Part shown: positions 6,349 to 44,142 of the stretch, in pieces
Layout: each line of letters begins with the position of its first letter
Position numbering within the stretch: the stretch's first letter is position 1
NCBI GenBank assembly: GCA_963708025.1
Contig: CAVPSB010000018.1
Coordinates: 448,001 to 512,000 of the forward strand
Direction: 5' to 3'
Source: an uncultured Candidatus Rokubacteria bacterium
Lineage (GTDB): Bacteria; Methylomirabilota; Methylomirabilia; Rokubacteriales; DASRDR01
Length of the DNA: 64,000 bases
Program-made: the position numbers and the translations under genes
Notes under the pieces: generated by a model
What the model was told of the DNA's origin: nothing
Databases searched by the model: none
The model's input: the letters and a program-made list of their open reading frames with translations, nothing else

Positions 6349-7733
6349 CTATGCGGGCTGCGGCTCCGCCGTCACCGGGTCCAGGCCGAGGCGGAGCTGG
6401 AATTCGCGGCGGAGCAGCAGGAGAGCCATCACCATCTGCAGGGTGACGGCACCCACCGAGAGGTACCAGATCCAGCGCAGCTCGAAGCCCGGGACCCGCG
6501 ACAGCAGGAACGCAGGGACGGCGACCACCAGGATGCGGACGAACGACGCGATGAGCGACGGCATGGTGTTGCCCATCGCCTGGAACATGCTCGAGGCGAC
6601 GAAGACGATGCCCGACGCGACGAAGTTCCAGGACACGATGCGCAGGTACTCCTCGCCGACCGCGACGACCTGCGGGTCCGTGGAGAAGACGCGGATCATG
6701 GCGGCCGGCGCGATGTGACAGCAGAGGGCGAGGAGCACCATCGCGCGACCCGGCCATCAGAGCAGCCGTCCGGAACGTGTCGCGCACGCGCTGCGGCCTG
6801 CGCGCGCCGAAGTTCTGCCCCGCCACCGGCGCGACCGCGAAGCCGAGCGCCACCACCGGCATGAAGCCCGCCTGGATCGATGCGCATGCCGATGCCGAAG
6901 CCCGCCTGGGCCGCGGCGCCGAACGGCCGGCTGATGACGTAGACGATGAACAGGTAGACGGCCATCAGCGCGAACTCGGCGCCGGCGGGCAGGCCGATCT
7001 TGAGCAGGCGACGCCACAGGGCCGACGTCGCGGCTTCCAGTCGCACCGGCACGAACTTCAGGTACGCGTCCGTCGGCAGGAAGTAGAGCGCGAGCCACAC
7101 GGTGCCCGACCGCGACCGCGATCGAACGTGGCGAGCGCCGCGCCGGCGACGCCGAGCGGGCGATGGCGTGACCCAGCCGAAGATCAGGAACGGCGCCAGG
7201 ATCATGTTGAGGATGACCGTCGCCGTCTGCACGACCATCCCCGGCTTGAAGTTGCCGGTGCCGCGCAGCGCCGCGCCCATCGCGACCATGCCGAACTGGA
7301 GCGCCAGCGCCGGGATGAACCACGCGCAGGTACTCGCCGGCCAGGCGCCGCGGTCGCGGCGTCGGCGCTCAGCGCGCGGCGTAGCGCGTCCGGAGCGCCG
7401 TCGCGAGCAAGGCGAAGAACGCGCCGCGCGACCAGGACCGAGAGCACCAGCGACTGGTTGAAGACGCAGCAGCGGCCTGCTCGCGGTCCTTGCGGCCCGG
7501 CGGCGTGCGAGACCAGCGTCGTCGTGCCGACGCCGAGCATCTGCGTCAGCGCGAGCACGATGAACATCAGGTTGCCGGCGATCGCCGACCGCCGCGACGG
7601 CCTCCTTGCCGAGCGCCCGACCCAGTAGAGGTCGATCAGGAAGTAGAGCGTCTGGAAGACCATCGTGACCAGCATGAAGCTCGGTGGTCTTGAGCAGGTG
7701 GCGGAGACCGGAGCCGGTGGTCAGGTCCTGCAT
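6349..7733 (-). CDS. MATE family efflux transporter (frameshifted)
   Basis: MQDLTTGS start; ALRGTGNFKPGM, LNMILAPFLIFGW, LLKIGLPA, VAGQNFGA, FQAMGNT motifs across frames. Confidence 0.85.
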
Positions 7734-8142
7734 GCCGGCAATCTAACACCAAACGCGCTGCGGACGAGCCGGGTCCCTGTACACTCTTCCGCGATCGGCA
7801 TGCTCGCCATCGGATCGTCGCGCGTTCTCACGGCGGCTTCATGGCCGCCACCAAACCGCGGCACAATCCTGCACCAAGCCGCCAAACGCCTCCCTCCAGT
7901 CCGTGAGGGGCTACGGCACCTCACGCGCCAGGACGTTCTGACAGTCGCCGCCGAACTTTTCGGCAGCGCCACCGCCCACCACCACCTCGCCCTCCCGCTC
8001 ATTGCCCGAAGTTCGCGCCCCGGCACGCTCGATGCCCGGGCACTTCGTTTGCTAGATCCGCTACAGGGGCTGCTCCTAGGGAGAGTTGACGAGCGCAGGC
8101 CTCTCGACGTGGAAAAGCCTGGGAAAGCCTGGGGTGAAGGAC

Positions 8143-8868
8143 ATGGCGCAGGAAGACCGGGCGGATCAGGGAGCCAGGAAACGCCAAACGCTCGCCGAAA
8201 TCCGGGCGGAGATTGATCGGCTATACTCCCTACGGGAGGACGATGAGCCGCCGGCCCAACCTCGTCCTCGGCGGAGGCTCGTCGCAGGGGTGGTCGCCGC
8301 TACGGTAGGCGCAGCCGTGATATCGGGCGTGCTGGTGGGTACACTGCTACCCCGACAGGCAGCTCGGGGGCAATCGAAGACACCGGTTACCATGGCACCC
8401 GCCCCGGTGCCGCGGTCGCCCGTGGTGAGCGAGCCCCAGCAGGCGGCGACCGACGTCGGGGATGCACCCGGGCCTGGTGCGACCTCGGACGACGAGGGTG
8501 TGCTGCGCGAGTCGGTGGACGTCTTGCTGGCCGCAACGAACCAGCGCGACCTCTCGGGCGTGCTCGCCTTCTACCCGGAGCGCGTGCCGCGATTCTACCT
8601 GGCGCGTGACGTGCCCCGCGATGTCGTCGCCGCCGACAAGGCCCGGCAGTTCCGCCAGGCGACGGTGCTCGACGTTCGTCGCACCAGCGACGTGGTGCTC
8701 ATCATCGATCCGGCCGGTGACGCCGCAGTGATGCGCTTCACCAAGCGTTACGTCATTACCGGACCGGGTCTGGATCGTCAGGGGGAGTCACTCCACGAGC
8801 TGCACTGGGCCAAGCGCGAGACCGGCTGGACGATCGTGAGCGAGCGCGATCTCCGCGTCCTCCGCTGA
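8143..8868 (+). CDS. Membrane-anchored protein with C-terminal NTF2/SnoaL-like domain
   Basis: Single TM helix, Pro-rich linker, ATNQRDLSGVLAFY...FTKRY...LHWAKRETGWTIVSE. Confidence 0.6.
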   Translation: MAQEDRADQGARKRQTLAEIRAEIDRLYSLREDDEPPAQPRPRRRLVAGVVAATVGAAVISGVLVGTLLPRQAARGQSKTPVTMAPAPVPRSPVVSEPQQAATDVGDAPGPGATSDDEGVLRESVDVLLAATNQRDLSGVLAFYPERVPRFYLARDVPRDVVAADKARQFRQATVLDVRRTSDVVLIIDPAGDAAVMRFTKRYVITGPGLDRQGESLHELHWAKRETGWTIVSERDLRVLR

Positions 8869-21423: not shown

Positions 21424-22476
21424 ATGAGATTCTACACAACGCAGCACCGATACTACTGCGGCATCGATCTGCACGCCCGACACGATGTACGTCTGCGTCC
21501 TCGACGCCGAGGGCAAGGTGCGCGTCCACCGCAACGGCCCGGCCAGCCCGGAGCACTTCCTGGCCACGATCGCGCCGTACCGCGAGGATCGTCGTCGTGG
21601 CCGTCGAGTGCATCTTCACCTGGTACTGGCTCGCCGATCTCTGCGCCCAGGAGGGCATCCCCTTCGTCCTCGGCCACGCCCTCTACATGAAGGCCATCCA
21701 CGGCGGCAAGGCCAAGAACGACAAGATCGACTGCCCACAAGATCGCCGTGCTGCTCCGCGGCGGCATGATCCCCATGGCCTACGTCTACCCGCGCGAGAT
21801 GCGGGCCACCCGCGATCTGCTGCGCCGGCGCTGCCACCTCATGCGCAAGCGCGCCGAGCTCCTCGCCCACATCCAGAACACCACCAGCCAGTACAACCTG
21901 CCCGCGCTTCGGCAAGAAGATCGCCTACAAGGCCAACCGCGACCGGCGTGGCCGAGCACTTCCCCGATCCCGAGGTCCGCAAGAGCATCGAGACGAACCT
22001 CGCCCTGCTCGATCACTACGATCGGCTGCTCACCGACCTCGAGCTGCACCTCACCCGCACCGCCAAGGTGCCACGACCCCAACGCCTTCTACCGCCTGCG
22101 CTCGGTGCCCGGGATCGGCAAGATCCTGGCCCTGGTGATCCTCTACGAGATCCACGACATCGACCGCTTCCCCCGCGTCCAGGACTTCGTCTCCTACTGC
22201 CGCCTGGTCAAGTGCGCCAAGGAGTCCGCCGGCAAGCACTACGGGTACTCGGGCAAGAAGATCGGCAACGCCCATCTCAAGTGGGCCTTCTCCGAGGCCG
22301 CCGTCCTCTTCTTGCGCAAGAACCCCGCGGGCCAGCACTACGTCGCGACGCCTCGCGCCAGCAAGCACGGCAAGGCCAAGGCGCTCACCATCCTGGCCCA
22401 CAAGCTGGGCGCGGGCCGTCTACTACATGCTCCACGCGCCAGCAGGCCTTCGATCCGAAGACGTTCTTTGGCCTGA
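21424..22476 (+). CDS. IS110 DEDD recombinase/transposase (frameshifted)
   Basis: YCGIDLH, VAVEC, KAKNDKID, RSVPGIGKILA, ESAGK, GNAHLKWAFSEAA, AHKL. Confidence 0.92.
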
Positions 22477-24237: not shown

Positions 24238-25515
24238 TCATGGGGTATCGTGGTCCCCGTCGACCCGGGGCTCGGTTCTCGGCGCAGACGTGCGGCCTGT
24301 GCTGGGACCCTCGGCCCCGCAAGGACCTCCCTCGACGCGCTTCGCTTTCCGGTGCCCGAACCATGGCGGCGTGGCACTCCATGCGGAGACCAGGCGGCGC
24401 TCGGTGTCGGGCCGGCGCTTCAGGAAGGCCGCGAGCGCACGACCGTCGGCAGTGAGGAGCGGCCAGGGATCGGCCCCGGTCTCGGTCGCCGCGCGGAAGA
24501 CGGCCGCGGCGTCGTACCGCCCCTTCGTGGGGAAGAAGCCGAGCTCCACCCCGTCGAGCGCCAGGGGGTCGCGGTCCTGGAGGTATTGCCTGAGACGCTC
24601 GCGGAGGCGAGCGACGCGGGCCTCACCAGTCAGGAGCAGCGCTGCGAGGCGGCGGGCCTCGGCCTCGTCGGGGATCGGCGCCTCATCCATGGCCTCGAGG
24701 GCGGCCAGGCCGGCCGGACACCGGTTCACCCAGGGGCAGGTCGCACACGCGGTCGAGGGCCGGGGCGGGAACGCGCCGGGATCGTCGGGGGTGGCGAGGG
24801 CCTGGGCGATACGAGCCGCGGTCGTCCGAGCCCAGGCCAGTGTCTCGGCGGTGTCCGCCGGAGTGAAGGCCGTGCGGGCGACCCGGCGGGTGCGAAGGTA
24901 GTGGTACTCGACCGTGACCGCCTCGAGCCGCGGCGCCCACGCCCACAGCAGCGCCGCGTAGCAGCCCGGTGCCCATGCCCACTGCAGAGTCTCGTCGTCC
25001 TCCGTGGCCCAGCCGCTCTTCCAGTCGCACACCGTGGCCCGCCGGCCATCCAGGGCGACGAGATCGAGCCGGCCGCGGAGAAAGGCGGCCGGGGCGTCCC
25101 ACCCGACCTGCCGGCCTCCAGCGTCGATCGCGAGCGCGTGCTCGACCGCCACGGTGTGTTCCACCGACACGACCCCGTGAGCGAGCCAGGTGCTCACGAG
25201 GGCCGAGGCCTCGCGGGCGACCGCGGTCCCTGCCTCGTCTGGCAGGGCATGCCGGGTCACTAGATCCCGTGCGAGCGCCGGTATCCGATCGAGCGGCGGC
25301 CAAGTGCCAGTGGCCTGGGCCTCGCGGACGTACGCCTCGACCAGCGCGTGGGCCACCGACCCGACTAGGCGGGGCCGCTGATCGGCGACCGGCTGCGGGA
25401 GTCGCAGCACGTACTCGAACCGGTACGCCGCGGGACACCGGTCCCAGGCGTCGAGGCGCGAGGGACTGACCCGCGGGAGCTTCTCGGTGGCCGTCTGGAG
25501 CGCGGTCACACTCAT
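24238..25515 (-). CDS. PD-(D/E)XK nuclease, RecB/AddB/Cas4-like with 4-Cys Fe-S motif
   Basis: SPSRLDAWDRCP, GSVAH, LRGRLDLV, DWKSG, CATCPWVNRCP; ATGA-coupled to UvrD. Confidence 0.85.
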   Translation of the reverse strand: MSVTALQTATEKLPRVSPSRLDAWDRCPAAYRFEYVLRLPQPVADQRPRLVGSVAHALVEAYVREAQATGTWPPLDRIPALARDLVTRHALPDEAGTAVAREASALVSTWLAHGVVSVEHTVAVEHALAIDAGGRQVGWDAPAAFLRGRLDLVALDGRRATVCDWKSGWATEDDETLQWAWAPGCYAALLWAWAPRLEAVTVEYHYLRTRRVARTAFTPADTAETLAWARTTAARIAQALATPDDPGAFPPRPSTACATCPWVNRCPAGLAALEAMDEAPIPDEAEARRLAALLLTGEARVARLRERLRQYLQDRDPLALDGVELGFFPTKGRYDAAAVFRAATETGADPWPLLTADGRALAAFLKRRPDTERRLVSAWSATPPWFGHRKAKRVEGGPCGAEGPSTGRTSAPRTEPRVDGDHDTP

Positions 25516-27401
25516 GACGGGGTAACCTCCACGGTAGTTATGGTGATAGGCCTCGTCGGAGCCGACCGGATGTCGAGGCCTGATTCCCGGAGGAAGCGGG
25601 AGGGCGGCCGAAACACGACATCGCCCCAGAGGCGGCGCATCCGGGCCACCGAGCACACGAGCCGCTGACGCGCCCGGGTCATGCCGACGTAGCAGAGGCG
25701 GCGCTCCTCGGCGAGCGCCTCGGGAATGGTGTGGCGGTAGTGCGGCAACAGTCCCTCCTCGATCCCGACGATGACCACCGTGTCGAACTCGAGACCCTTG
25801 GCCGCGTGCAGCGTGAGGCCGAGCACCTGCGTCGCGGCCGGGGCCCGGGCGTCCTTCTCGCTCAGCACGACCGTGTCGAGGAACTCGCCCAGGTTCTCGC
25901 CGCCGTCCGCCTCCCACCGCCGCGTGAGGGCGACCAGCGCGGCCATATCCTCGGCGCGACGAGCCTCCGGGCTTTCGTCCGGGCGATGGCCGTGGATCTC
26001 CCGCGCCAGCGTCTCGAGGAGCTGGCTGACCGGGGCCGGCCCGGTCCGCCAGATCGCGAGCTGCTGGAGGAGCGCGGCCAGCCGCGGACGGGTTCGCGCG
26101 GCCTCGGTCAGCGCCGCGGCGACCCCCACGCCGGCGGCGCGGGCGCGAAGCGTGGCCAGGGTCTTCGCCCCGATCCCGCAGCGGAGCCCGCGCAGGATCC
26201 GGTCCCAGGCCGGCCAGTCGGCGGGGTTGACGAGCACGCGACAGACGGCGAGGCAATCGCGTACGGCGGCGCGCTCGGCCAGGGGCCGGTCCGCGAGCAC
26301 CCGGACCGTGAGGCCGCGTGCCACGCAGGCCCGCGCGATCGGGCCCAGGCACGCCGTCACCCGTGCGAGGACGGCGATGGGTGGACCACTGGTCCGCAGC
26401 CAGTCGGTGCACGCGGCGGCCAGCCCCTCGGCTTCCGCCCGGTCGTCGGGCCACGTGAGAACCGTGGGGACTGGCCCGGCCGGCCGCACCGCGGCGAGCG
26501 GCTTCGGCCGGCGGGTGCTGTTGTGCGCGATCAGGCGCGCGGCGGTCGTCACGATCTGGGGTGTGGAGCGGTAGTTCCGGCCGACGGCGAGCACCGTGCC
26601 GCCCAGGTACGTGCGCTCGAAGGCGTGAAGGCGCGTGAGGTCAGCGCCACGCCATCCGTAGATGGCCTGGTCGTCGTCCCCGGCGAGCGTCACCGCGCCG
26701 TCCGGGGCCGCGAGCGCCTCGATGAGGGCGTGCTGGAGGGCGCACAGATCCTGCGCCTCGTCAACCAGCACGGCCTGGAACCGCGCGCGCAGCGCCGCGC
26801 GCACGGCCGGCTCGCGCGCGAACAGCCCCAGGGGCTCCGCCAGCAGATCCAGAAAGTCGAAGGCGTTCGCCTCGCGACACCGGGCCTCGTAGGCGACGCG
26901 AAGGGCCGCGATCGGGGACCGTGTCGGCCCCGGCCCCGGGGCCCCGGCGACACCGGGCGTCCTGGCGCGATCGAGGGCCTCGACGAGCGTCGGCAGGTCG
27001 CCGTCGAGGCCGAGGCCCTTCACGAGGCGGGCGACGAGCCGCCGGGTGTCCTCGCGGTCGAGGATCGTGAAGGCGGGCGTCCGGCCCACCGCGGCGGCGT
27101 GGCGGCGGAGGAGCCAGGCCCCGAACCCGTGGAACGTCCCCGTCCAGAGCGCCCGGGCGCGTGGGCCGAGCGCCTGGACGAGCCGACCGCGCAGCTCGTC
27201 CGCCGCCGCGCGCGAGAACGTGAGCGCGAGGATCGCCGTCAGATCGAGCCCGTCGTGGTCGATCAGCCACTGGATCCGGTGCGTGAGGATCCGGGTCTTG
27301 CCGCTGCCGGGCCCGCAGGCGAGCAGCAGGGGCCGGGCCGGATGCGTGACCGCGGCGCGCTGGGCCGGGTGCAGCGCCGCCAGCGTCTCGTCCAGGAACA
27401 T
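25512..27401 (-). CDS. UvrD/PcrA-like SF1A helicase
   Basis: GPGSGKT, LTFSRAAA, VDEAQD, GDDDQAIYGWRGA, NYRST, LTLHAAKGLEF, EERRLCYVGMTRA. Confidence 0.95.
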   Translation of the reverse strand: MFLDETLAALHPAQRAAVTHPARPLLLACGPGSGKTRILTHRIQWLIDHDGLDLTAILALTFSRAAADELRGRLVQALGPRARALWTGTFHGFGAWLLRRHAAAVGRTPAFTILDREDTRRLVARLVKGLGLDGDLPTLVEALDRARTPGVAGAPGPGPTRSPIAALRVAYEARCREANAFDFLDLLAEPLGLFAREPAVRAALRARFQAVLVDEAQDLCALQHALIEALAAPDGAVTLAGDDDQAIYGWRGADLTRLHAFERTYLGGTVLAVGRNYRSTPQIVTTAARLIAHNSTRRPKPLAAVRPAGPVPTVLTWPDDRAEAEGLAAACTDWLRTSGPPIAVLARVTACLGPIARACVARGLTVRVLADRPLAERAAVRDCLAVCRVLVNPADWPAWDRILRGLRCGIGAKTLATLRARAAGVGVAAALTEAARTRPRLAALLQQLAIWRTGPAPVSQLLETLAREIHGHRPDESPEARRAEDMAALVALTRRWEADGGENLGEFLDTVVLSEKDARAPAATQVLGLTLHAAKGLEFDTVVIVGIEEGLLPHYRHTIPEALAEERRLCYVGMTRARQRLVCSVARMRRLWGDVVFRPPSRFLRESGLDIRSAPTRPITITTVEVTPS

Positions 27402-32240: not shown

Positions 32241-32720
32241 CTACAGGAAGCCCCGCTGGGCCAGGGAGGCCCACTCGCCGGTGCCGTTGCCGATGACGAG
32301 GTGGTCGTGGAGCCGGACGCCGAGGAGCCGGGCTCCCTCCGCGAGCTGCCGGGTCAACGCCACGTCCTCCTTGGACGGCGTCGGATCGCCCGATGGGTGG
32401 TTGTGGACCAGCAGTAGGTGCGCGGCACCCTCGCGGAGCGCCGGCCCGAGCACCTCGCGGGGGTGGACGATCGAGGCCGACAGGCTCCCGGTCGAGACGA
32501 GGTGATGCCCGGTGTAGCCGTTCTGGGCATTCAGGAAGATCACCCAGAAATGCTCGCGGTCGTCGTCGTGGCGGGCCAGGAGCTCGCGGGCGAAGTCGGC
32601 GGCGGCCTCGGGGCTCGAGAGGGTCGGCCAGGACGGGGGGACGTGCTCGCGGGCCACCGTGTAGGTGACGGCGACCCGGCGGTAACGCCGGCAGCCGTCG
32701 TCCGAAGGCATTCGTGGCAT
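32241..32720 (-). CDS. radC: RadC-like JAB domain protein (short MGE form)
   Basis: REHFWVIFLN, VHPREV, HNHPSGDPTPSKED, LHDHLVIG. Confidence 0.92.
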   Translation of the reverse strand: MPRMPSDDGCRRYRRVAVTYTVAREHVPPSWPTLSSPEAAADFARELLARHDDDREHFWVIFLNAQNGYTGHHLVSTGSLSASIVHPREVLGPALREGAAHLLLVHNHPSGDPTPSKEDVALTRQLAEGARLLGVRLHDHLVIGNGTGEWASLAQRGFL

Positions 32721-32891: not shown

Positions 32892-33143
32892 CTAGGCGAG
32901 CGTCAGCCGCAGCTCCAGGGTCACGATGATGCTGGGTTGGGCAGCGAACCCCAGCGAGGCCAGGTCCTCTCCCTCGAGGTGCAGCGCGACCGCGTTTCGT
33001 AGGTTGGCGGTCACCTCGTCCAGGGTCTCGCCCTGGGTCACCACCGCGAGCTCCTCGCACGTGGCCACGTACCCCGACTCCGCGTCGCGCGTGATCCGGG
33101 CGTGGATGGCGGGTGGCGGCGTGCGGCCACTCACGGGACACAT
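32892..33143 (-). CDS. HicB-like antitoxin domain protein (orphan)
   Basis: GYVATCEELAVVTQGETLDEVTANLRNAVALHLE. Confidence 0.8.
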   Translation of the reverse strand: MCPVSGRTPPPAIHARITRDAESGYVATCEELAVVTQGETLDEVTANLRNAVALHLEGEDLASLGFAAQPSIIVTLELRLTLA

Positions 33144-33165
33144 CCTACCGCGCTCTCGCTCGCGC

Positions 33166-33552
33166 TCAGAATGGCAGATCGTCCTTGTCTTCGCGCTCCG
33201 CTGGCGGGACGGCGCCGGCGGCGCCCTTGGTGCTCGGCCCGAAGCTGACCTGGTCGGCCACGATGGTGAGCCGCGACTGGCGCTGGCCGTCGCGCTCCCA
33301 GGTGTGCTGGCGAAGGCGCCCGTCGACCACCACGAAGTCGCCCTTCGCCTTGTGCTGGGCGAGCGCCTCGCCGGGCTTCCCGTAGACCTCGACGTCCACG
33401 AACAGGGCCTCGTCGCGGCGCTCGCCGTTGCTGGTGAAGCTCCGGTTCGAGGCGAGCCGCAGGTTCGTCACGGCCGTGCCGCTCGGCAGGTACTTCAGCT
33501 CGGGGTCGGCCACGAGCCTACCGGACAGGGTGATACGGTTCACGTCAGACAT
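33166..33552 (-). CDS. ssb: Single-stranded DNA-binding protein
   Basis: NRITLSGRLVADPELKY, VDGRLRQHTWE, acidic tail DDLPF. Confidence 0.95.
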   Translation of the reverse strand: MSDVNRITLSGRLVADPELKYLPSGTAVTNLRLASNRSFTSNGERRDEALFVDVEVYGKPGEALAQHKAKGDFVVVDGRLRQHTWERDGQRQSRLTIVADQVSFGPSTKGAAGAVPPAEREDKDDLPF

Positions 33553-34271
33553 GGCGACGCTCCTCCTTGACGCCGGCAGTCAGGACGGCCTTGCCCCGCC
33601 TGATTCGGCCCGTTGCCGGGGAGCTGACCGCGCCGGCACGGACAGCAGGCGGCGACGCGGAAGGCCGCCGGAACGCCCCCGGCGTCGATCAGCCACGCGG
33701 CGAAGCCCTCGGGGCCGACGACCCGATGCTGGCCACGGGCGGCATCGACTCGGTGGTCGAGGTGGAACTCCACCCCGGAGGGTCGGGTCACGACGAGCAC
33801 GGTGTGGGTCAGCGTCAGCACCATCCCACGGCCACGGTGGCGGGCACCGCCGACGGTACGGTCGGGTCTGCTTCTGCCGCTCACCACAGCCCTTTGTAGA
33901 GTCCGGCCAGTGCGATCGCGGCCGCCACCAGGACCGCGCCGAGGTACGCGCTCACCACGCGGCGCAGCATCCACTCGTCCGTGACCGTCTGTCCCCTCGA
34001 CATGGTGGTCGTGTCCCTTCGCCGTGCCATCGCGACGGGCCTGACCCCGTCAGACAGGTGCCACGGTCCCCCCCGACCGCTCATTCACGCCCTCCTTTTC
34101 CGACGCCGCATCGCGCCAGCCACTCCGGAACAGCCTGACCCGTCTGACGCCATACTTCGCGCCGGATCGACGGCCCGATCCGGAGCGGACCGGATCGCCA
34201 CTCTCAACCCCCACCCGACAATCCGACACGACCGTAGACAGACTCCTCCCGGGTGGCGGGGCCGACACCCC

Positions 34272-34417
34272 AGATCGGTGCCCCGTCCCCGAAGGGGCCC
34301 GAAGGCTGACGAGACGGCAGATGAACAGCGGACCCCCACACCGAATCAGACCGCCGCCGCCTCAGGCCACCGCCGACCTCCCACGGCAGCGCGCGCGGGA
34401 GCCGAAGGCGCCGACCC
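34272..34417 (-). ncRNA. Structured repeat copy A (candidate ncRNA/leader element)
   Basis: Near-identical to 34552-34696; minus strand folds with a closing stem, two cUUCGg loops and a G-U-rich rod. Confidence 0.55.
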
Positions 34418-34551
34418 CTCAGAGATGCGTCGCCCGGCCCCGCTGTTCCATGCCCATCCGATGACCCCCGCCGCGCCATCCTCACCCCGCGATCCGGCCC
34501 CGACACGACCGCAGACAGACCCTGCCCCAGACTGACGGCGGCCGACGTCCA

Positions 34552-34696
34552 AGATCGGTGCTTCGTCCCCGAAGGGGCCAGAAGGCCGACGAGACGGAAA
34601 ATGAACAGCGGACCCCACACCGAATCAGACCGCCGCCGCCTCAGGCCACCGTCGACCTCCCAAGGCAGCGCACGCGGGAGCCGAAGGCGCCGACCC
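34552..34696 (-). ncRNA. Structured repeat copy B (candidate ncRNA/leader element)
   Basis: Second copy, ~280 bp period; weaker similarity extends to ~34224-34460 vs 34501-34733. Confidence 0.55.
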
Positions 34697-34996
34697 TCCC
34701 CGATCCCGCCGTTCCCAGGCTTCGAGCCCATCCGCGGCGTCTCTGCGTCACGCCGCGAGGTCGTTGCACGCCGCCCACCATAGGAATCTCATTAGGCGTC
34801 CGTGCAGGCCAGGGCCGTTCGAAGGCCGTCATGGAACGTCCCGCCAGCGCAGCGCCTGTTCCTCTGGACCTCTCCACGACCGGCTCTGTGGTCCACCCCA
34901 TGGGTGTCTCAAGGTTCCCGGGCGGAGAGACAACCCCGACCGGTTCGGCCGAGCTGCCGGATGGGGCCGGACGTGGTAGTTCGAGCCGGGGGTGCG

Positions 34997-35440
34997 TCAG
35001 CGGAAGGACTGGAGGAGACGGTCGAGCCTCGCCTCGGCGGTGGCGGGATCGACCCGCTCGCCGCTCCGCTCCGGGGCGGGGACCGGGTCAGGTCCCGGCG
35101 CGCCGGATGGCCCCTCGGTCGATCCCGTGCTCGCGGGGATCACGGAAGCGGGGGAAGCTTTTGGGAGTCCGGACCGGGGGCGTCGATGCGGGCCAAGCCC
35201 CGCCCGAACCGCATCCGGGGGCACCGGGAGCGCCCCGGGATGGCGGGCGGCGACGTAGGCCGGCAGCCCGGTCTGGAGTGCAGCCTTGATCGCCCGAGTT
35301 CGACGCGAGCGCGGGATCGCGAGCAGCCACCCAAGGAGCTCGACGTCCTCGTCGCGTGCCAGGTTGAAGTAGAGGCCCCGGTAGACCGGACGGTGGCGCT
35401 CGTCCCGACGATCGCCGTCGACGCCGGACAGGTCGTCCAT
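34997..35440 (-). CDS. ParR-like adaptor (putative RHH with C-terminal helix)
   Basis: Directly downstream of parM; LYFNL..DEDVELLGWL...RTRAIKAAL, flexible linker, terminal helix ARLDRLLQSF. Confidence 0.55.
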   Translation of the reverse strand: MDDLSGVDGDRRDERHRPVYRGLYFNLARDEDVELLGWLLAIPRSRRTRAIKAALQTGLPAYVAARHPGALPVPPDAVRAGLGPHRRPRSGLPKASPASVIPASTGSTEGPSGAPGPDPVPAPERSGERVDPATAEARLDRLLQSFR

Positions 35441-35443
35441 GGG

Positions 35444-35479
35444 ACTCTGCCAGAACTCTGCCAGACGCTCTGGCAGAGT
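35444..35479. repeat. ACTCTGCCAGA x2 direct plus one inverted copy (parC/operator-like)
   Basis: 35444-35454, 35455-35465 and inverted TCTGGCAGAGT 35469-35479, in the parM-parR gap. Confidence 0.7.
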
Positions 35480-36513
35480 CAGGCCGACACAGGGTCAGGC
35501 ATCCCGTTCAGCTCCCGCTGCAGACGCTGGCCGTAGCGGAAGTACCCGATGGCGTTCTGCAGCCGGGCGTGAGGCACGATCTCGGTGTGCGGCGCGAGGG
35601 CCTGAAGGCGGGAGCCGAGCACCGCGCCGCCCCCGCCGGTCACCCAGAGGCGAGCCAGGCCGCGCGCGCCCTCGCCCCAGAGCATCCGCGCGTGCGCCAC
35701 GATCGCCTCGGCGTGCCGGTCGAGCCAGGGCTCGAGCAGCGCGCCGAGCGGGACGGTGTCGCCCCCGACGTGGAGCGCGCCGCGCCGCAGGGGCTCGTCG
35801 AGCGCGTGGGGATCCTGCTCGACGCCCCATCGCCGGTAGACCTCGCGGCCGAGGTCGAGCAGCAGGTCCGCCATCCCGGTATTGCGGGTGAGGCAGTGCG
35901 CCGGCACCACCGCGAGGCCATCGAGGGTGAAATAGTCCGTCGTCCGGAACCCGACGTCGAGCACGCCGACCCGCGCCTGGAGTCCCTCGGGCCCGGCGAG
36001 CTGACCGCGCGGGTCGAGGAGCTGCGCGAGAACAGTGCCGAGGGGCTGCGGAAGCACGCGGACCCGCCCGATCGTCACGCGCCACACGCGGCCGCCCGGC
36101 TCGAGCTGCAGCTCGTGGGTGCCCTCGAGCTGGCGGCGCAGGGTCTCCCCGTGCGGCTCGACATCCGCCACGGGCAGGCCCGTGACCAGGGTGACGGGTT
36201 CTCCGGGGTGCTCGAGCATCCGGGCCAGGGCGGTCAGGGCCAGCACCCGGAACACGGCGCCGTCCACCCACGAGCGGCTCAGCCCGACAAAGCACCGGTG
36301 CGCGAGCCGGAGGGCGCGCTCCCCCACGGTGTAACTCCGTCCGTCCACCGTGACGCCCTCGATGCCGTCCGGCCGACCATGGCGGCCCAGGCCGGTGCCG
36401 AGCCGGAACCCAGGCGCCCTCCACTCCCCCACCACCGAGGGAAAGACGTCCGTGCCGCCCGCCGTCACGCACTTGGTGTAGCCAAAGCCCACGTCTAGTC
36501 CGACGATCGTCAT
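35479..36513 (-). CDS. parM: ParM/StbA actin-like partition ATPase
   Basis: GLDVGFGYTK (phosphate 1), VTGLP, PQPLG, VLDVGFRTTD (phosphate 2), VTGGGG, NAIGY. Confidence 0.9.
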   Translation of the reverse strand: MTIVGLDVGFGYTKCVTAGGTDVFPSVVGEWRAPGFRLGTGLGRHGRPDGIEGVTVDGRSYTVGERALRLAHRCFVGLSRSWVDGAVFRVLALTALARMLEHPGEPVTLVTGLPVADVEPHGETLRRQLEGTHELQLEPGGRVWRVTIGRVRVLPQPLGTVLAQLLDPRGQLAGPEGLQARVGVLDVGFRTTDYFTLDGLAVVPAHCLTRNTGMADLLLDLGREVYRRWGVEQDPHALDEPLRRGALHVGGDTVPLGALLEPWLDRHAEAIVAHARMLWGEGARGLARLWVTGGGGAVLGSRLQALAPHTEIVPHARLQNAIGYFRYGQRLQRELNGMPDPVSA

Positions 36514-36533
36514 GGTGAGGACCTCCCGTCCGG

Positions 36534-39982: not shown

Positions 39983-40729
39983 CCGGCCTCCGACCTCCAG
40001 GACGCCCCGTCGGCATCGAGGTCCCCGTCCACGACATGTCGCGGGCCGCCCGCGAGCGCCATCAAGGCCGCGGCCCGGTGCCGCTCCCAACTCGTGACGC
40101 CCTCGATCGGCTGTGACGGCGCGTTCACCGGGACATCTCGAAGGGCCGTTGGGCGGTTCGTGCCTTCACCGAGCACACTTCGCGAGCCATCGGGACGTCC
40201 CGAGCGCGGACGGGCCCAGTCGGCGAGTGGCCGATCGCCCGATCAGCGCGCGAGGAGCGATCTGCACCCTGGTCCATGCCAAGGCCCCCCCAAGACGGAC
40301 GAGATTGCCTTCCAGAGCCTAGAGGGCCACCCCCGGCGCGAATCAGCCCGACTGGGCTCAGCTGGACGGTCGCAACTGAGCCAGGGGCCTCCACCCCCGA
40401 TCTCCGACCCACTCCTCCACAGGGTCCTGCGGCTGGATGCGACCGAATGGAGTCCTGGACGAGGACCGCCCCGACGAGAATCACCCGGGGTTCGCGTGCC
40501 CCGGGTGCGTGGGGTTCGGGCAAGACTCCCCGGATTGACCCCGATCCGGCTTCCGGATGGAGGTGCCGCTCCAAATGGATGGCCGCCGCTGGTCAACCCC
40601 GGAGCGAGCCGGCGGCCAGACGCTCACGCGCTGCGGTTCCCAATTGTCGCCGTGCCGGACTCGAGCACACCGGCGTCGAGGCACTGAAGGGTCCGGGCCG
40701 GGCCAGGGGCCGGCGCGCCTCAGGCATGA

Positions 40730-41617: not shown

Positions 41618-42104
41618 GGAGCGCGGCGCCGACCCGACGCCGTTCCCAGGTTGAGGTGCTCCTGGCTGCGCCCGCGAGCGCACGTGTCGCCCCTCCCCGC
41701 GCCTCCAACGCTCACCTGTCAGTCCGGCTAGACAGACTCCTGAGATCCGCCAGAGAGGTATTGGCCGATCACCCGTGGCCTGCACCCGCGAAATGGGCTC
41801 ACCGGGAGGGCCCTCGGTGCGCCGTTCGACGAGCTGACGAAGGAGTCACCGCGACGATCGCGGGGACCTGCCCGGAGGGCCGGTTGAGGGGGTAGCCGAT
41901 CCGGTGGACGGACTGCACGACCCCGTCCGCGAGGTCCCCAGTGGAGGACCAGGACCGCGGTTCGCCGGCGGATTCGCCCAACCCGGGGTTCACCTGAGGA
42001 CTGCATGGCGTCGCGGACACCCGCGACATATGGCCATACTCGAATAATCATTAGAGTGTGATCTGACTGGGTCAGCGTTCGCCTGTTCTGGCATTTGTTC
42101 ATAT

Positions 42105-42186
42105 TTGACTCACGTTCACGTATCGTGTACAGTCAAGTCAGATGAACGATCGTTCCTGTTTCTGGGTTGTTCACGTAGCATGAACA
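42105..42186 (+). promoter_or_regulatory. Sigma70 promoter with two inverted-repeat operators upstream of abiEi
   Basis: TTGACT(42105)-N17-TACAGT(42128); GTTCA-N7-TGTAC at 42114-42130 and TGTTCA-N7-TGAACA at 42168-42186. Confidence 0.7.
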
Positions 42187-42227
42187 CAAGCGTAGCAATG
42201 AACGTTGACGGACCCATGGGCGGCACC

Positions 42228-43286
42228 ATGCATCTGCCGGAGCGGGAAGGCAAGCTCTTGGAGGACGCTCTGATCGCCTTCAGGCGCGTCACCGGGCTGA
42301 AGGCCGGCCTCGTCCCCAAAGAGCCCAAGATCCCGAAGGGTGCGCACCCTGACGCAGTCATCGAGGTCGAGGGAGACGGAAGGCGATTCCGGTTCTTCGT
42401 CGAAGTCAAAGCCGTGGATCGTGCGGTCGCGCTCGCGACTGTCAAGCATAGGCTCGAACCATTCGGCCACCAAGGTTTGCTCGTCGCGCCCTACATCACG
42501 CCCGAGCTCGCCAACCACTGCCGGAAGCTCAACCTACCCTTTATTGACACCGTTGGGAACGCATACCTACGGGCCCCCGGACTCTATGTCTTGGTTCGCG
42601 GGGAACGCCCCCCGGAGCAAGCGGTAACGGGCACGGGCGCCCGGGCTGGAGGTACCGCCACCGCACTCCGGGTCGTGTTCGCGCTCCTCTGCAAGCCCGA
42701 GCTGCTCAATGCACCCTACCGCGACATCGTCGCGGCCGCTGGCGTGGCGCTCGGTGCGGTCGGGTGGGTGTTCTTCGATCTGCAACGCCGGGGCTATATC
42801 ATCGGCGGAACGCGAACGCGCAACCGCGGCTTCCTCGAGGCCGGCCGCCTGCTCGACGAATGGGTCACGAACTTCCCGATCAAATTGCGCCCCAAACTCA
42901 ACCCGCGCCGTTTCCGGGCACCTGACCCGGGCTGGTGGCAGCACGCCCGTCTGCCGAACGGGGCGCTCTGGGGGGGGGAAGTCGCCGGGGCTAGACTGAC
43001 CGAGTATCTCAAGCCGGCGACCTATACGATCTACGTCGATCCCACCCAGGCGCGGGAGCACATCGCCACGTTGGTGAAGGAGCATCGCCTCCGCGCCGAC
43101 CCGCAGGGCGACGTCGAGGTCCTCGATCGGTTCTGGAATCTCCCGCCGCTCGATCGCACCCGGGCAGACCTTGTGCCGCCGCTTCTGACCTACGCTGACC
43201 TGATGGCCACGCTCGATCCGCGGAACATGGAAGTCGCCAAGCGGATCCGCGCGGAACAGCTCGACCTTGCTGTCCGTCGCGCGTGA
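42228..43286 (+). CDS. Type IV TA antitoxin, AbiEi family
   Basis: FIDTVGNAYL, HTH YRDIVAAAGVALG, LLDEW, WGGE, PPLLTYADL; overlaps the toxin gene; alternative ATG at 42198. Confidence 0.85.
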   Translation: MHLPEREGKLLEDALIAFRRVTGLKAGLVPKEPKIPKGAHPDAVIEVEGDGRRFRFFVEVKAVDRAVALATVKHRLEPFGHQGLLVAPYITPELANHCRKLNLPFIDTVGNAYLRAPGLYVLVRGERPPEQAVTGTGARAGGTATALRVVFALLCKPELLNAPYRDIVAAAGVALGAVGWVFFDLQRRGYIIGGTRTRNRGFLEAGRLLDEWVTNFPIKLRPKLNPRRFRAPDPGWWQHARLPNGALWGGEVAGARLTEYLKPATYTIYVDPTQAREHIATLVKEHRLRADPQGDVEVLDRFWNLPPLDRTRADLVPPLLTYADLMATLDPRNMEVAKRIRAEQLDLAVRRA

Positions 43287-44142
43287 ACGCCCACTCGACG
43301 CCCTGACGCTCGACGTGCTGCGCCACGTGGATCGTATCTCCCAAGATCTCAGGCTCGATTACTTCGTGGTCGGGGCGATGGCGCGGGACATCCTGCTCAA
43401 CGGAGTGTTCGGATTGGACACGGGTCGCAGGACGGCCGACCTCGACCTCGCAGTGGCCGTCGAGGGGTGGCCCCAATTCGAGGCCATCAAGGCGCGCCTC
43501 ATCGAGACGGGGTCGTTCGTACCGGCCGCGTCGTCCGCCCAGCGCCTGTACTATCGTGCGACGACGAGGGGAACCGGGTATCCGCTCGACATCATTCCCT
43601 TCGGAGGGGTGGAGCAGCCGCCGCACCAGATCGCCTGGCCGCCCGACCGGTCCATCGTCATGAACGTGGCTGGCTACGAGGAAGCACGCGCCTGTGCGGT
43701 CCCGGTGGATGTGGTCTCGGGCTTCGTGGTGCGCGTCGCCTCGGTGCCGGGGCTCGCAATCTTGAAGCTCATCGCATGGGCCGACCGCGGAGCCAGTGAT
43801 CCGAGAGACGCGATCGATCTGGCGACCCTCCTGCGCCAGTACGGGGACGCGGGCAACGAGGGCCGGTTGTATGACACAGAGATTGCCGTCCTCGAGGTCG
43901 CGAACTATGATTTCGAGCTCGCCGGAGCACGGCTCCTCGGCATGGACGCGAGCCGAATCGCCGCCCCCACGACACGCGCCCAAGTCCACTCGATCCTCGA
44001 CGATGCGGTTCGACTGGATCGCCTGATCCGCGACGTGGCGCGAGGACTCGCGGCCGAGGATCCCGTCGCGACGGCCGGCGGATTGCTCGCTCAGTTCAAT
44101 GCGGGGTTTCGCGAGGCGCAATCCGACGCCGCGCCGAACTGA
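43267..44142 (+). CDS. Type IV TA toxin, AbiEii-like nucleotidyltransferase
   Basis: VVGAMARD, RRTADLD, DIIPFG, LKLIAWADR, RDAIDL. Confidence 0.85.
   Translation: MLSVARERPLDALTLDVLRHVDRISQDLRLDYFVVGAMARDILLNGVFGLDTGRRTADLDLAVAVEGWPQFEAIKARLIETGSFVPAASSAQRLYYRATTRGTGYPLDIIPFGGVEQPPHQIAWPPDRSIVMNVAGYEEARACAVPVDVVSGFVVRVASVPGLAILKLIAWADRGASDPRDAIDLATLLRQYGDAGNEGRLYDTEIAVLEVANYDFELAGARLLGMDASRIAAPTTRAQVHSILDDAVRLDRLIRDVARGLAAEDPVATAGGLLAQFNAGFREAQSDAAPN

Follow-up and report, generated by a model that had tools for sequence, protein, structure and literature searches.

A tandemly repeated non-coding element upstream of the ssb operon of a Candidatus Rokubacteria mobile island: a candidate leader RNA module

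The DNA analysed here is a stretch of 64,000 nt (the window; G+C content, 71%) from an uncultured Candidatus Rokubacteria bacterium (assembly GCA_963708025.1, contig CAVPSB010000018.1, positions 448,001 to 512,000), and the subject of this report is a repeated element within a non-coding stretch of approximately 0.9 kb (~34085-34990 of the window) that separates two par-like genes from an operon containing ssb. The genes that neighbour the element are all on the minus strand, referred to below as the sense strand. On the upstream side are the genes of an actin-like ParM/ALP protein (35482-36531; ALP_N, 1.5e-26; MreB-like_C, 3.9e-13; phrog_691 'partition protein', 4.5e-39), which matched the PRTRC_D and ParM models only below cut-off, and of a 147-aa protein (34997-35440) that matched nothing in Pfam, NCBIfam, PHROGs, PADLOC or PDB sequences, the last of which gave no match for a 351-aa protein either. 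The position and size of the 147-aa protein make it a candidate ParR-like adaptor. A terminator-like hairpin followed by a T-rich tail (34935..34953, minus strand), called by a consensus scan only, probably ends this par-like operon. On the downstream side are an open reading frame (ORF) of 67 codons with a hydrophobic C-terminus (33881..34084, minus), which had no family match and is conserved in related loci, a second ORF (ORF2) that overlaps it, and ssb as third gene of the operon (33166..33552, minus), which encodes a 128-aa protein with the SSB OB fold (Pfam PF00436, 1.7e-27) and a C-terminal DDLPF tip.

Two direct-repeat cores with a period of 277-280 bp (84 nt, 96%; 77 nt, 88%; 28 nt, 86%) were found by a repeat search within the non-coding stretch, and blastn aligned the two copies with 88.4% identity over 198 nt (E 4e-67), in agreement with an earlier reading of the locus made from the DNA letters and their ORFs (the sequence-only reading), which had described a tandem pair of near-identical cores with a period of about 280 bp. 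No further similar sequence was present in the 64 kb, the next-best blastn match having an E value of 0.004. Copy 1, distal from ssb, occupies 34500..34698 of the minus strand (nhmmer E 7e-56; covariance model R1, 125.9 bits) and copy 2, proximal to ssb, occupies 34223..34419 of the same strand (nhmmer E 5e-52; model R1, 127.9 bits). The size of the element, previously given as about 146 nt, is revised to a conserved unit of about 195 nt, of which the 5' 126 nt are the best conserved; this 5' core lies at 34573-34698 in copy 1 and at 34293-34419 in copy 2. The spacers of the two copies align poorly. The inter-copy spacer (34420..34499; sense strand G 0.50, C 0.24) is poorly conserved, and the proximal spacer, the approximately 130 nt that separate the start codon of the first ORF from the nearest element (34085..34222; G 0.45, C 0.22), is unconserved apart from GGAGG, the ribosome-binding site at 34090-34095 (alignment A7).

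The absence of credible ORFs from this stretch, also claimed in the sequence-only reading, was confirmed by its codon-position signal, which is flat (G+C of about 0.6-0.8 in all three phases) as opposed to a third-position G+C of 0.9-1.0 in the flanking genes. A 175-aa ORF that spans both copies (34204-34731) was rejected as coding; its G+C at the three codon positions is 0.73, 0.66 and 0.74, and 1-nt indels between the copies cause part of each to be read in a different frame. The element is a non-coding repeat.

An SSB-anchored genome scan gave 41 related loci, and the element was searched for in these and in the window (678,687 nt in all). The six closest loci, all on contigs of Candidatus Rokubacteria metagenome-assembled genomes (MAGs), encode SSB of 78-91% amino-acid identity, compared with at most 54% for the others. 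Eleven copies were found in six of the 42 sources, namely two in the window, three in tandem in each of L004 and L003 and one in each of L002, L005 and L001; the contig of L006 starts inside ssb, so that its upstream region is missing. Neither nhmmer nor model R1 found further copies in the window or the 41 loci (next best, E 0.25 and 16 bits with E 0.88, respectively). Place and orientation are constant, all eleven copies lying between the par-like genes and the small ORF-ssb-radC operon and none elsewhere, and the gene order ALP, ~145-aa gene, elements, small ORF, ORF2, ssb and radC is retained. The copies of the window are close mutual relatives (0.93), their nearest outside relatives being copy 1 of L003 and of L004, whereas copy 3 of L003 and of L004 shares only about 0.70 identity with other copies yet has the invariant blocks described below intact. 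From these comparisons, copy 3 appears to be old and duplication to be recurrent and lineage-specific, with retention of the copies. The eleven copies represent only about 6-7 independent lineages. L003, L005 and L006 are contigs of one MAG, which contains three copies of the ssb island; two of the three contigs end in or beside the element or ssb, and the numbers of elements differ (3 and 1). The island occurs in several copies and has probably moved recently.

The contribution of selection was assessed against third-codon positions of ssb. Identity of the 5' 126 nt between the window and L004, L003 or L002 was in the range of 0.79-0.94 whereas that of ssb third positions was 0.70-0.75; against L001, the corresponding values were 0.68-0.69 for the core and 0.74 for ssb. 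The 3' ~80 nt of the element was near neutral in the same comparisons. These findings support purifying selection on the 5' 126 nt, which exceeded ssb third positions in three of the four locus comparisons, and they agree, as does the alignment of copies, with the earlier statement that conservation is higher in the core than in the spacers. Conservation takes the form of invariant blocks of 12-17 nt, with GCGCCTTCGGC found in 11 of 11 copies and GGT[C/T/G]TGATTC[G/A]GTG in 10 of 11; GCGCCUUCGGC and GGUCUGAUUCGGUG are also counted among the invariant blocks. A functionless repeat, produced by tandem duplication of leader sequence in neutral drift, would account for recurrent, lineage-specific duplication and for the decay of the 3' parts and spacers; the slower change of the 5' core than of synonymous sites in those three comparisons, and the retention of invariant blocks by the oldest copies, make such a repeat distinctly improbable.

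A second conserved block, of about 70 nt, lies upstream of the array (34775..34842, minus; alignment A5) and was found in all six loci (in L004 at 8440-8500). It contains an invariant CGCCT[A/C]ATGAGATTCCT, which is the start of a possible short ORF of 14 codons in the window (34748-34792; MRFLWW...). Across loci this ORF begins MRFLWW..., MRFLCW... or MRFLWC..., has 11-30 codons and is not preceded by a Shine-Dalgarno sequence; codon 4 varies at a single base, and the variants are synonymous (CTA/CTG/CTC). The block is a candidate leader peptide, promoter/operator or 5' end of a transcript. In L004, an insertion sequence (IS; 587-aa DDE transposase, 6595-8358) lies between the ~148-aa par-like gene and this block. 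Because the IS leaves both the block and the elements beside ssb, these belong with the ssb operon rather than with the par genes.

A search of Rfam 15 gave no match at gathering score in the whole window and none at E values up to 10 in the region 33900-35100, in keeping with the new family proposed in the sequence-only reading. A blastn comparison of the region (word size 11) with 72,556 plasmid records gave no match, nor did one with a phage collection, and in a tblastn search of plasmids with SSB all matches were below 60% identity and provided no useful context. A literature search for a 'DUF3577' RNA motif returned nothing relevant. The element is a new one as far as Rfam and the searched collections of plasmids and phages are concerned.

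Strand asymmetry, the most informative of the new observations, was evident from the base composition of the non-coding stretch. The sense strand has more G than C throughout; in the window, L004, L002 and L001 the excess peaks at +0.27 to +0.36 in spacers that are not conserved, and it amounts to +0.12 to +0.30 upstream of the first copy and to +0.11 to +0.14 in the cores, whereas an excess of T over A (+0.50 to +0.60) is found only in the cores. For the 800 nt at 34085-34884, the plus-strand GC skew is -0.204 compared with a mean of -0.012 (standard deviation 0.052) for the 64 kb; only seven of 1264 scanning windows were equally extreme, and five of these overlap this region. The other two mark a site at ~21600-22450 that overlaps an ORF with a weak, below-cut-off match to IS110 transposase. 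Another non-coding stretch of the island, at 40100-40700, has a skew of +0.03. In transcribed DNA, the non-template strand gains an excess of G over C and of T over A. A constraint on the composition of otherwise free sequence indicates a strand-specific process, and the skew fits a sense transcript that crosses the array as part of a long leader without translation.

The reading that we tentatively prefer, on the sequence comparisons described, is that of a modular cis-acting element in the leader RNA of the ssb operon, which would be long and untranslated; this reading is possible but falls short of being probable. The leader would measure about 0.45-0.9 kb, and the operon (small ORF-ORF2-ssb-radC-exonuclease...helicase-nuclease) is part of an integrated mobile island of Rokubacteria-like genomes. 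Transcription would start at or near the conserved upstream block and run through one to three elements before the first ribosome-binding site. The 5' 126 nt of each copy would then act as RNA, that is, as a sequence-specific, partly structured site consisting of a first domain with a hairpin, a second hairpin that carries the nearly invariant GGUCUGAUUCGGUG and a short capped hairpin. Binding of this site by a regulator or by the transcription machinery would set the amount of transcription or stable message that reaches ssb. Rho loads on C-rich, G-poor untranslated RNA, and a leader that is rich in G and poor in C may thus escape Rho termination. One copy would be enough, extra copies having arisen by tandem duplication and been retained. 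Transcription of the element, its action at the level of RNA and its regulatory role are all inferred. The RNA motif proposed in the sequence-only reading is retained in part: the element is non-coding, linked to ssb, without an Rfam match and constrained in its 5' 126 nt, while the exceptional structure and the particular fold attributed to it are not upheld.

Besides the fixed position and orientation of the element, the IS of L004, the constraint on the 5' core, the unconserved proximal spacer and the strand skew, the leader-RNA reading draws on differences in pairing between the strands. The consensus of the aligned copies obtained with RNAalifold was -44.9 kcal/mol with 54 pairs (covariation term, -0.03) for the sense strand, whereas the antisense strand, without consensus pairs in domain 2, reached only -19.2 kcal/mol and 22 pairs; the earlier choice of the minus strand as sense for pairing was thus sound. 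Among sub-regions of the sense strand, z-scores relative to shuffles were -1.09 for domain 1, -2.42 for domain 2 (8 of 300 shuffles as low) and -1.41 for both 5' domains together. In the nine full-length copies, 92.7% of cells were paired in the consensus fold, eight pairs changed on both sides compared with 3.5 expected (1 of 500 shuffles as high) and the covariation score was 0.188 compared with 0.145 for shuffles (0 of 500 as high) and 0.04-0.085 for slid controls. In the 5' core of all eleven copies, 10 cells were changed on both sides compared with 4.2 expected (0 of 500). The best helix was the base of domain 2 (alignment A6, columns 58-63/108-113), in which A-U is replaced by G-C in three copies and G-C by C-G in two; in hairpin 2, C-G is replaced by U-A in three copies, but C·A occurs in four. 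The asymmetry of pairing and the compensatory changes in domain 2 and hairpin 2 count in favour of a leader RNA.

Other results weigh against that reading. Fold energies, contrary to the earlier description of the element as highly structured, were matched by those of shuffled sequences, whether single copies, the alignment or the whole region was folded. Thus, z-scores of the window copies as RNA were -0.40 and -1.12 for the sense strand and -0.83 and -1.04 for the plus strand, and as DNA ranged from -0.48 to +0.14 (approximately -0.1 for the sense strand); those of the 5' cores of the eleven copies ranged from -1.78 to +0.63 for the sense and from -0.51 to +1.13 for the antisense strand. The entire 906-nt stretch as sense RNA gave +0.67, the 3' half of the element +0.52 and the sense alignment +0.08 relative to column-shuffled alignments, of which 153 of 300 folded as well. 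Low free energies result from composition, since the cores, with sense-strand proportions of G 0.37-0.43, C 0.27-0.33, U 0.20-0.27 and A 0.05-0.09, pair readily through G-U. The fold is no better than base composition predicts, and the label 'highly structured non-coding RNA' should not be carried forward on these results. Many of the predicted pairs are G-U, as had been noted before, eight of the 33 pairs of the 5' core being G-U in at least 10 of 11 copies; near-invariant G-U pairs are as expected from spurious pairing in a strand rich in G and U. In the 5' core of the eleven copies only four pairs changed on both sides compared with 2.8 expected (87 of 500 shuffles as high), and the covariation score of 0.145, although above that of shuffles (0.108), was approached by slid controls, the highest of which reached 0.106. 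Between nine and eleven sequences, the consensus fold differed in the interior of domain 2. In an unbiased screen, 47 of 484 column pairs with high mutual information (9.7%) were compatible with Watson-Crick or G-U pairing compared with 10.5% of 7270 variable pairs. The argument from skew is indirect and is also compatible with an element that carries its own promoter. Finally, no promoter, transcription start, terminator or partner sequestering the ribosome-binding site was identified, and no expression platform (a terminator or a helix sequestering the ribosome-binding site) was found beside the regulated gene in the proximal spacer.

Lack of covariation among homologues, which had been named beforehand as a result that would speak against an RNA motif, was nearly what was seen, apart from weak support for a two-domain fold. 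The covariation signal does not clearly exceed the level that the relatedness of the copies could produce by itself, and two hairpin domains on the sense strand are at most hinted at, since some 6-7 lineages cannot establish a structure. The fold originally proposed fared worse than this two-domain alternative. It mixes two incompatible minimum-free-energy folds of the copies and is essentially that of copy 1, with its closing stem and long rod; applied to the homologues, it paired 83.8% of cells compared with 84.2% for shuffles, with a covariation score of 0.138 compared with 0.136 (196 of 500 as high). Bases of its CUCCC/GGGAG stem also belong to the GAGGUCGACG rod, the sequence CACCGA[TC]CT, which forms the closing stem's 3' arm, occurs in four of 11 copies, the CCCC-UUCG-GGGG hairpin and CCCCTTCGGGG occur in five of 11 each, and the 'GCC-UUCG-GC' hairpin has only two base pairs.

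A mini-ORF was also noted by eye in the elements (e.g., at ~34640-34665, minus; alignment A2, columns 46-66), consisting of G(A/G)GAGG, 6 nt, ATG or GTG, one codon and TGA. This start-X-stop arrangement is present in six of 11 copies; the start is CTG in one copy and TGA is replaced by TGG in four. The Shine-Dalgarno-like bases of the mini-ORF pair with CUCCC in the consensus fold.

The main rival of a leader RNA is an array that acts at the level of DNA, with promoter and/or operator sites for an island regulator such as the ParB-like proteins or the 147-aa protein, the copies forming a series of early promoters or operators that serve the ssb operon. The invariant 12-17-nt blocks, among them the one found in every copy, count in favour of such sites, as do the weakness of the evidence for structure, the lack of a conserved promoter beside the ribosome-binding site and the variation in copy number from one to three. 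However, a consensus-only scan for sigma-70 -35/-10 elements gave no match on either strand of the region 33100-35600 or in the regions of L002 and L001, and the single sigma-70-like match in L004 is located at the end of the IS; motifs of sigma-54 or extracytoplasmic function (ECF) type, searched for by eye only, showed no consistent spacing. No conserved palindromes (at least 5+5) or short iterons were found across copies, and neither the excess of T over A in the cores nor that of G over C in the spacer upstream of the first copy would be expected of double-strand binding sites. The promoter negatives are weak evidence, as the scan used the sigma-70 consensus and the promoters of this phylum are uncharacterised. 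Taken together, these results leave a DNA-level array rather unlikely. The operon promoter is more likely to lie in or upstream of the array because the proximal ~130 nt is unconserved, and the block at 34775-34842 is the obvious candidate.

The leader-RNA reading was also compared with one in which units processed from the leader act in trans, whether they are small RNAs, sponge a protein or form an antitoxin-like repeat array; sponge, primer and antitoxin-array roles had all been raised in the sequence-only reading, and none gained specific support. The tandem modular layout, the conserved blocks and the small hydrophobic product of the first downstream ORF are compatible with this possibility. 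However, three of the six loci have a single copy, and no terminator or processing signal was conserved at the borders of a unit. Thus, no terminator call was common to the window, L004, L002 and L001, and a hairpin inside the element that was called as terminator-like in the window (34622-34606) and L004 (8645-8661) was not so called in L002 or L001. Type III toxin-antitoxin arrays consist of short repeats before an endoribonuclease toxin gene, whereas the unit here is about 280 nt and the genes downstream of it are the small ORF, ORF2 and ssb, the small ORF overlapping the next and appearing to be in one operon with ssb. We consider a trans-acting RNA quite unlikely.

The remaining genes of the island place the element in a DNA-maintenance module of a mobile element. 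Upstream of the par-like pair, the minus strand carries the genes of two ParB-like proteins (40090-37909; PHROGs matches only), followed by that of a ~400-aa protein to which no family was assigned. Downstream of ssb, the same strand carries an 83-aa HicB-like ORF, radC (32241-32720), a PolB-exo-like exonuclease gene, several genes for proteins without a family, a UvrD-type helicase gene (25512-27401) and a PD-(D/E)XK nuclease gene. The block is flanked by an AbiEi/AbiEii pair and by a remnant with a weak, below-cut-off match to IS110 transposase, with metabolic genes beyond. No relaxase, oriT, type IV secretion gene or integrase was recognised in the 64 kb, in which many island proteins lack a family match, and a scan of the island for defence systems with PADLOC gave only generic UvrD/GajB-like and weak nuclease matches. 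The AbiEi antitoxin/AbiEii nucleotidyltransferase toxin pair (type IV toxin-antitoxin or abortive infection) is at 42105-44142, at the edge of the island. Between it and a Toprim/topoisomerase-like gene, G+C falls sharply to about 0.5 at 41900-42150; a boundary between modules, or a divergent promoter region, may lie here.

Proximity to the par-like genes raises the question of a partition centromere for the adjacent ParM/ALP system, given that the element is directly downstream of the ALP and 147-aa genes and that there is no non-coding DNA upstream of the ALP gene. Type II centromeres are arrays of short iterons. The element has neither iterons nor conserved palindromes, it is separated from the par genes by the IS of L004, and a better candidate is present at 35443-35480 between the ALP and 147-aa genes; a centromeric role for the element is thus scarcely credible. 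The 38-nt gap from the ParM/ALP stop codon to the start of the 147-aa gene contains at that position three 11-bp units (CTCTGCCAGAG-like), which include a perfect 12-nt inverted repeat. This site is a candidate operator or centromere-like site of the par-like pair, or an attenuator hairpin.

The site of the element before ssb invites comparison with the single-stranded DNA (ssDNA) promoters of the Frpo/ssi type, for which PMC11541004 cites Masai and Arai (1997), and with single-strand origins, either of which would be active while the island is single-stranded. As described in PMC11541004, Frpo is an ssDNA hairpin on the transferred (template) strand whose -35, -10 and UP elements imitate a promoter in double-stranded DNA, and it is often directly upstream of ssb in plasmid leading regions (F, ColIb-P9). 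The element resembles Frpo/ssi in being non-coding, a few hundred bases in size, upstream of ssb in a mobile DNA-processing module, orientation-specific and able to exceed one copy, and its surroundings of ParB-like, RadC, helicase and nuclease genes recall plasmid leading regions (PMC11541004). The statement of Weinberg and colleagues (PMC5737381) that RNA and ssDNA motifs are not reliably separable by computation also favours keeping such a signal in view. In contrast with Frpo/ssi, the element is not a long hairpin and is without -35, -10 or UP elements. None of six inverted-repeat pairs in the region 33500-35500 had both arms in one element, and the template strand is the less foldable one: z was +1.84 for the 906-nt stretch as plus-strand ssDNA, with 19 of 20 shuffles folding as well, and +1.37 for the antisense consensus relative to column-shuffled alignments. 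The sense strand as DNA, as noted above, was no different from shuffles. The copies are in tandem rather than dispersed before separate genes, no oriT, relaxase or type IV secretion gene was recognised in an island many of whose proteins match no family, and blastn found no similarity to plasmid records, a search in which the reference Frpo sequences themselves were not aligned. Thus, Frpo or a single-strand origin on either strand was rejected as the leading reading on the basis of fold z-scores, inverted repeats and the promoter scan, and an ssDNA signal is very unlikely; the earlier argument against Frpo, namely that a single-strand promoter should fold on the template strand, holds.

Other known systems also invite comparison. 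Processive antitermination RNAs such as put of phage HK022 and EAR are long, cis-acting leader RNAs that modify elongation. The element, read as a leader RNA, is like these in being a proposed cis-acting, modular and duplicable part of the untranslated leader of a long mobile or accessory operon; it differs from them in that Rfam gave no sign of homology, no terminators to be overridden were identified and its structure is not established. ColE1 RNA II and other R-loop primers would share with it a G-rich untranslated transcript, a C-rich template and a neighbourhood related to replication. This is pure analogy; there are no origin features, no Rep or DNA polymerase gene and no sign of a persistent hybrid. 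ARRPOF, GEBRO and PAGEV are plasmid-associated motifs of 223-349 nt (PMC5737381). Like the element, they are non-coding, conserved, of moderate length and located on mobile replicons, and computation does not decide in their case between RNA and ssDNA, but they are supported by covariation and come from other phyla, whereas the covariation of the element is weak and Rfam gave no match even at E values up to 10 (PMC5737381).

Mobile elements must rapidly switch on ssb and genes of anti-defence and repair on entering a new cell. To our knowledge, Frpo of enterobacterial plasmids is the only dedicated cis-signal before such ssb genes that has been well described. The element described here is in the equivalent position in an uncultivated phylum of high G+C content and is without the hallmarks of Frpo. 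An improbable, more far-reaching form of the leader-RNA reading would make it the first of a new class of strand-specific, tandem-modular leader RNAs that gate an establishment operon (ssb, radC, nucleases and helicase) of mobile islands, as an RNA counterpart of the Frpo switch, or a G-rich R-loop transcript that primes replication of the island. If only a promoter/operator array, the element would be ordinary; if a leader RNA module, it would represent an RNA family from Rokubacteria and a solution different from that of Frpo to the same problem.

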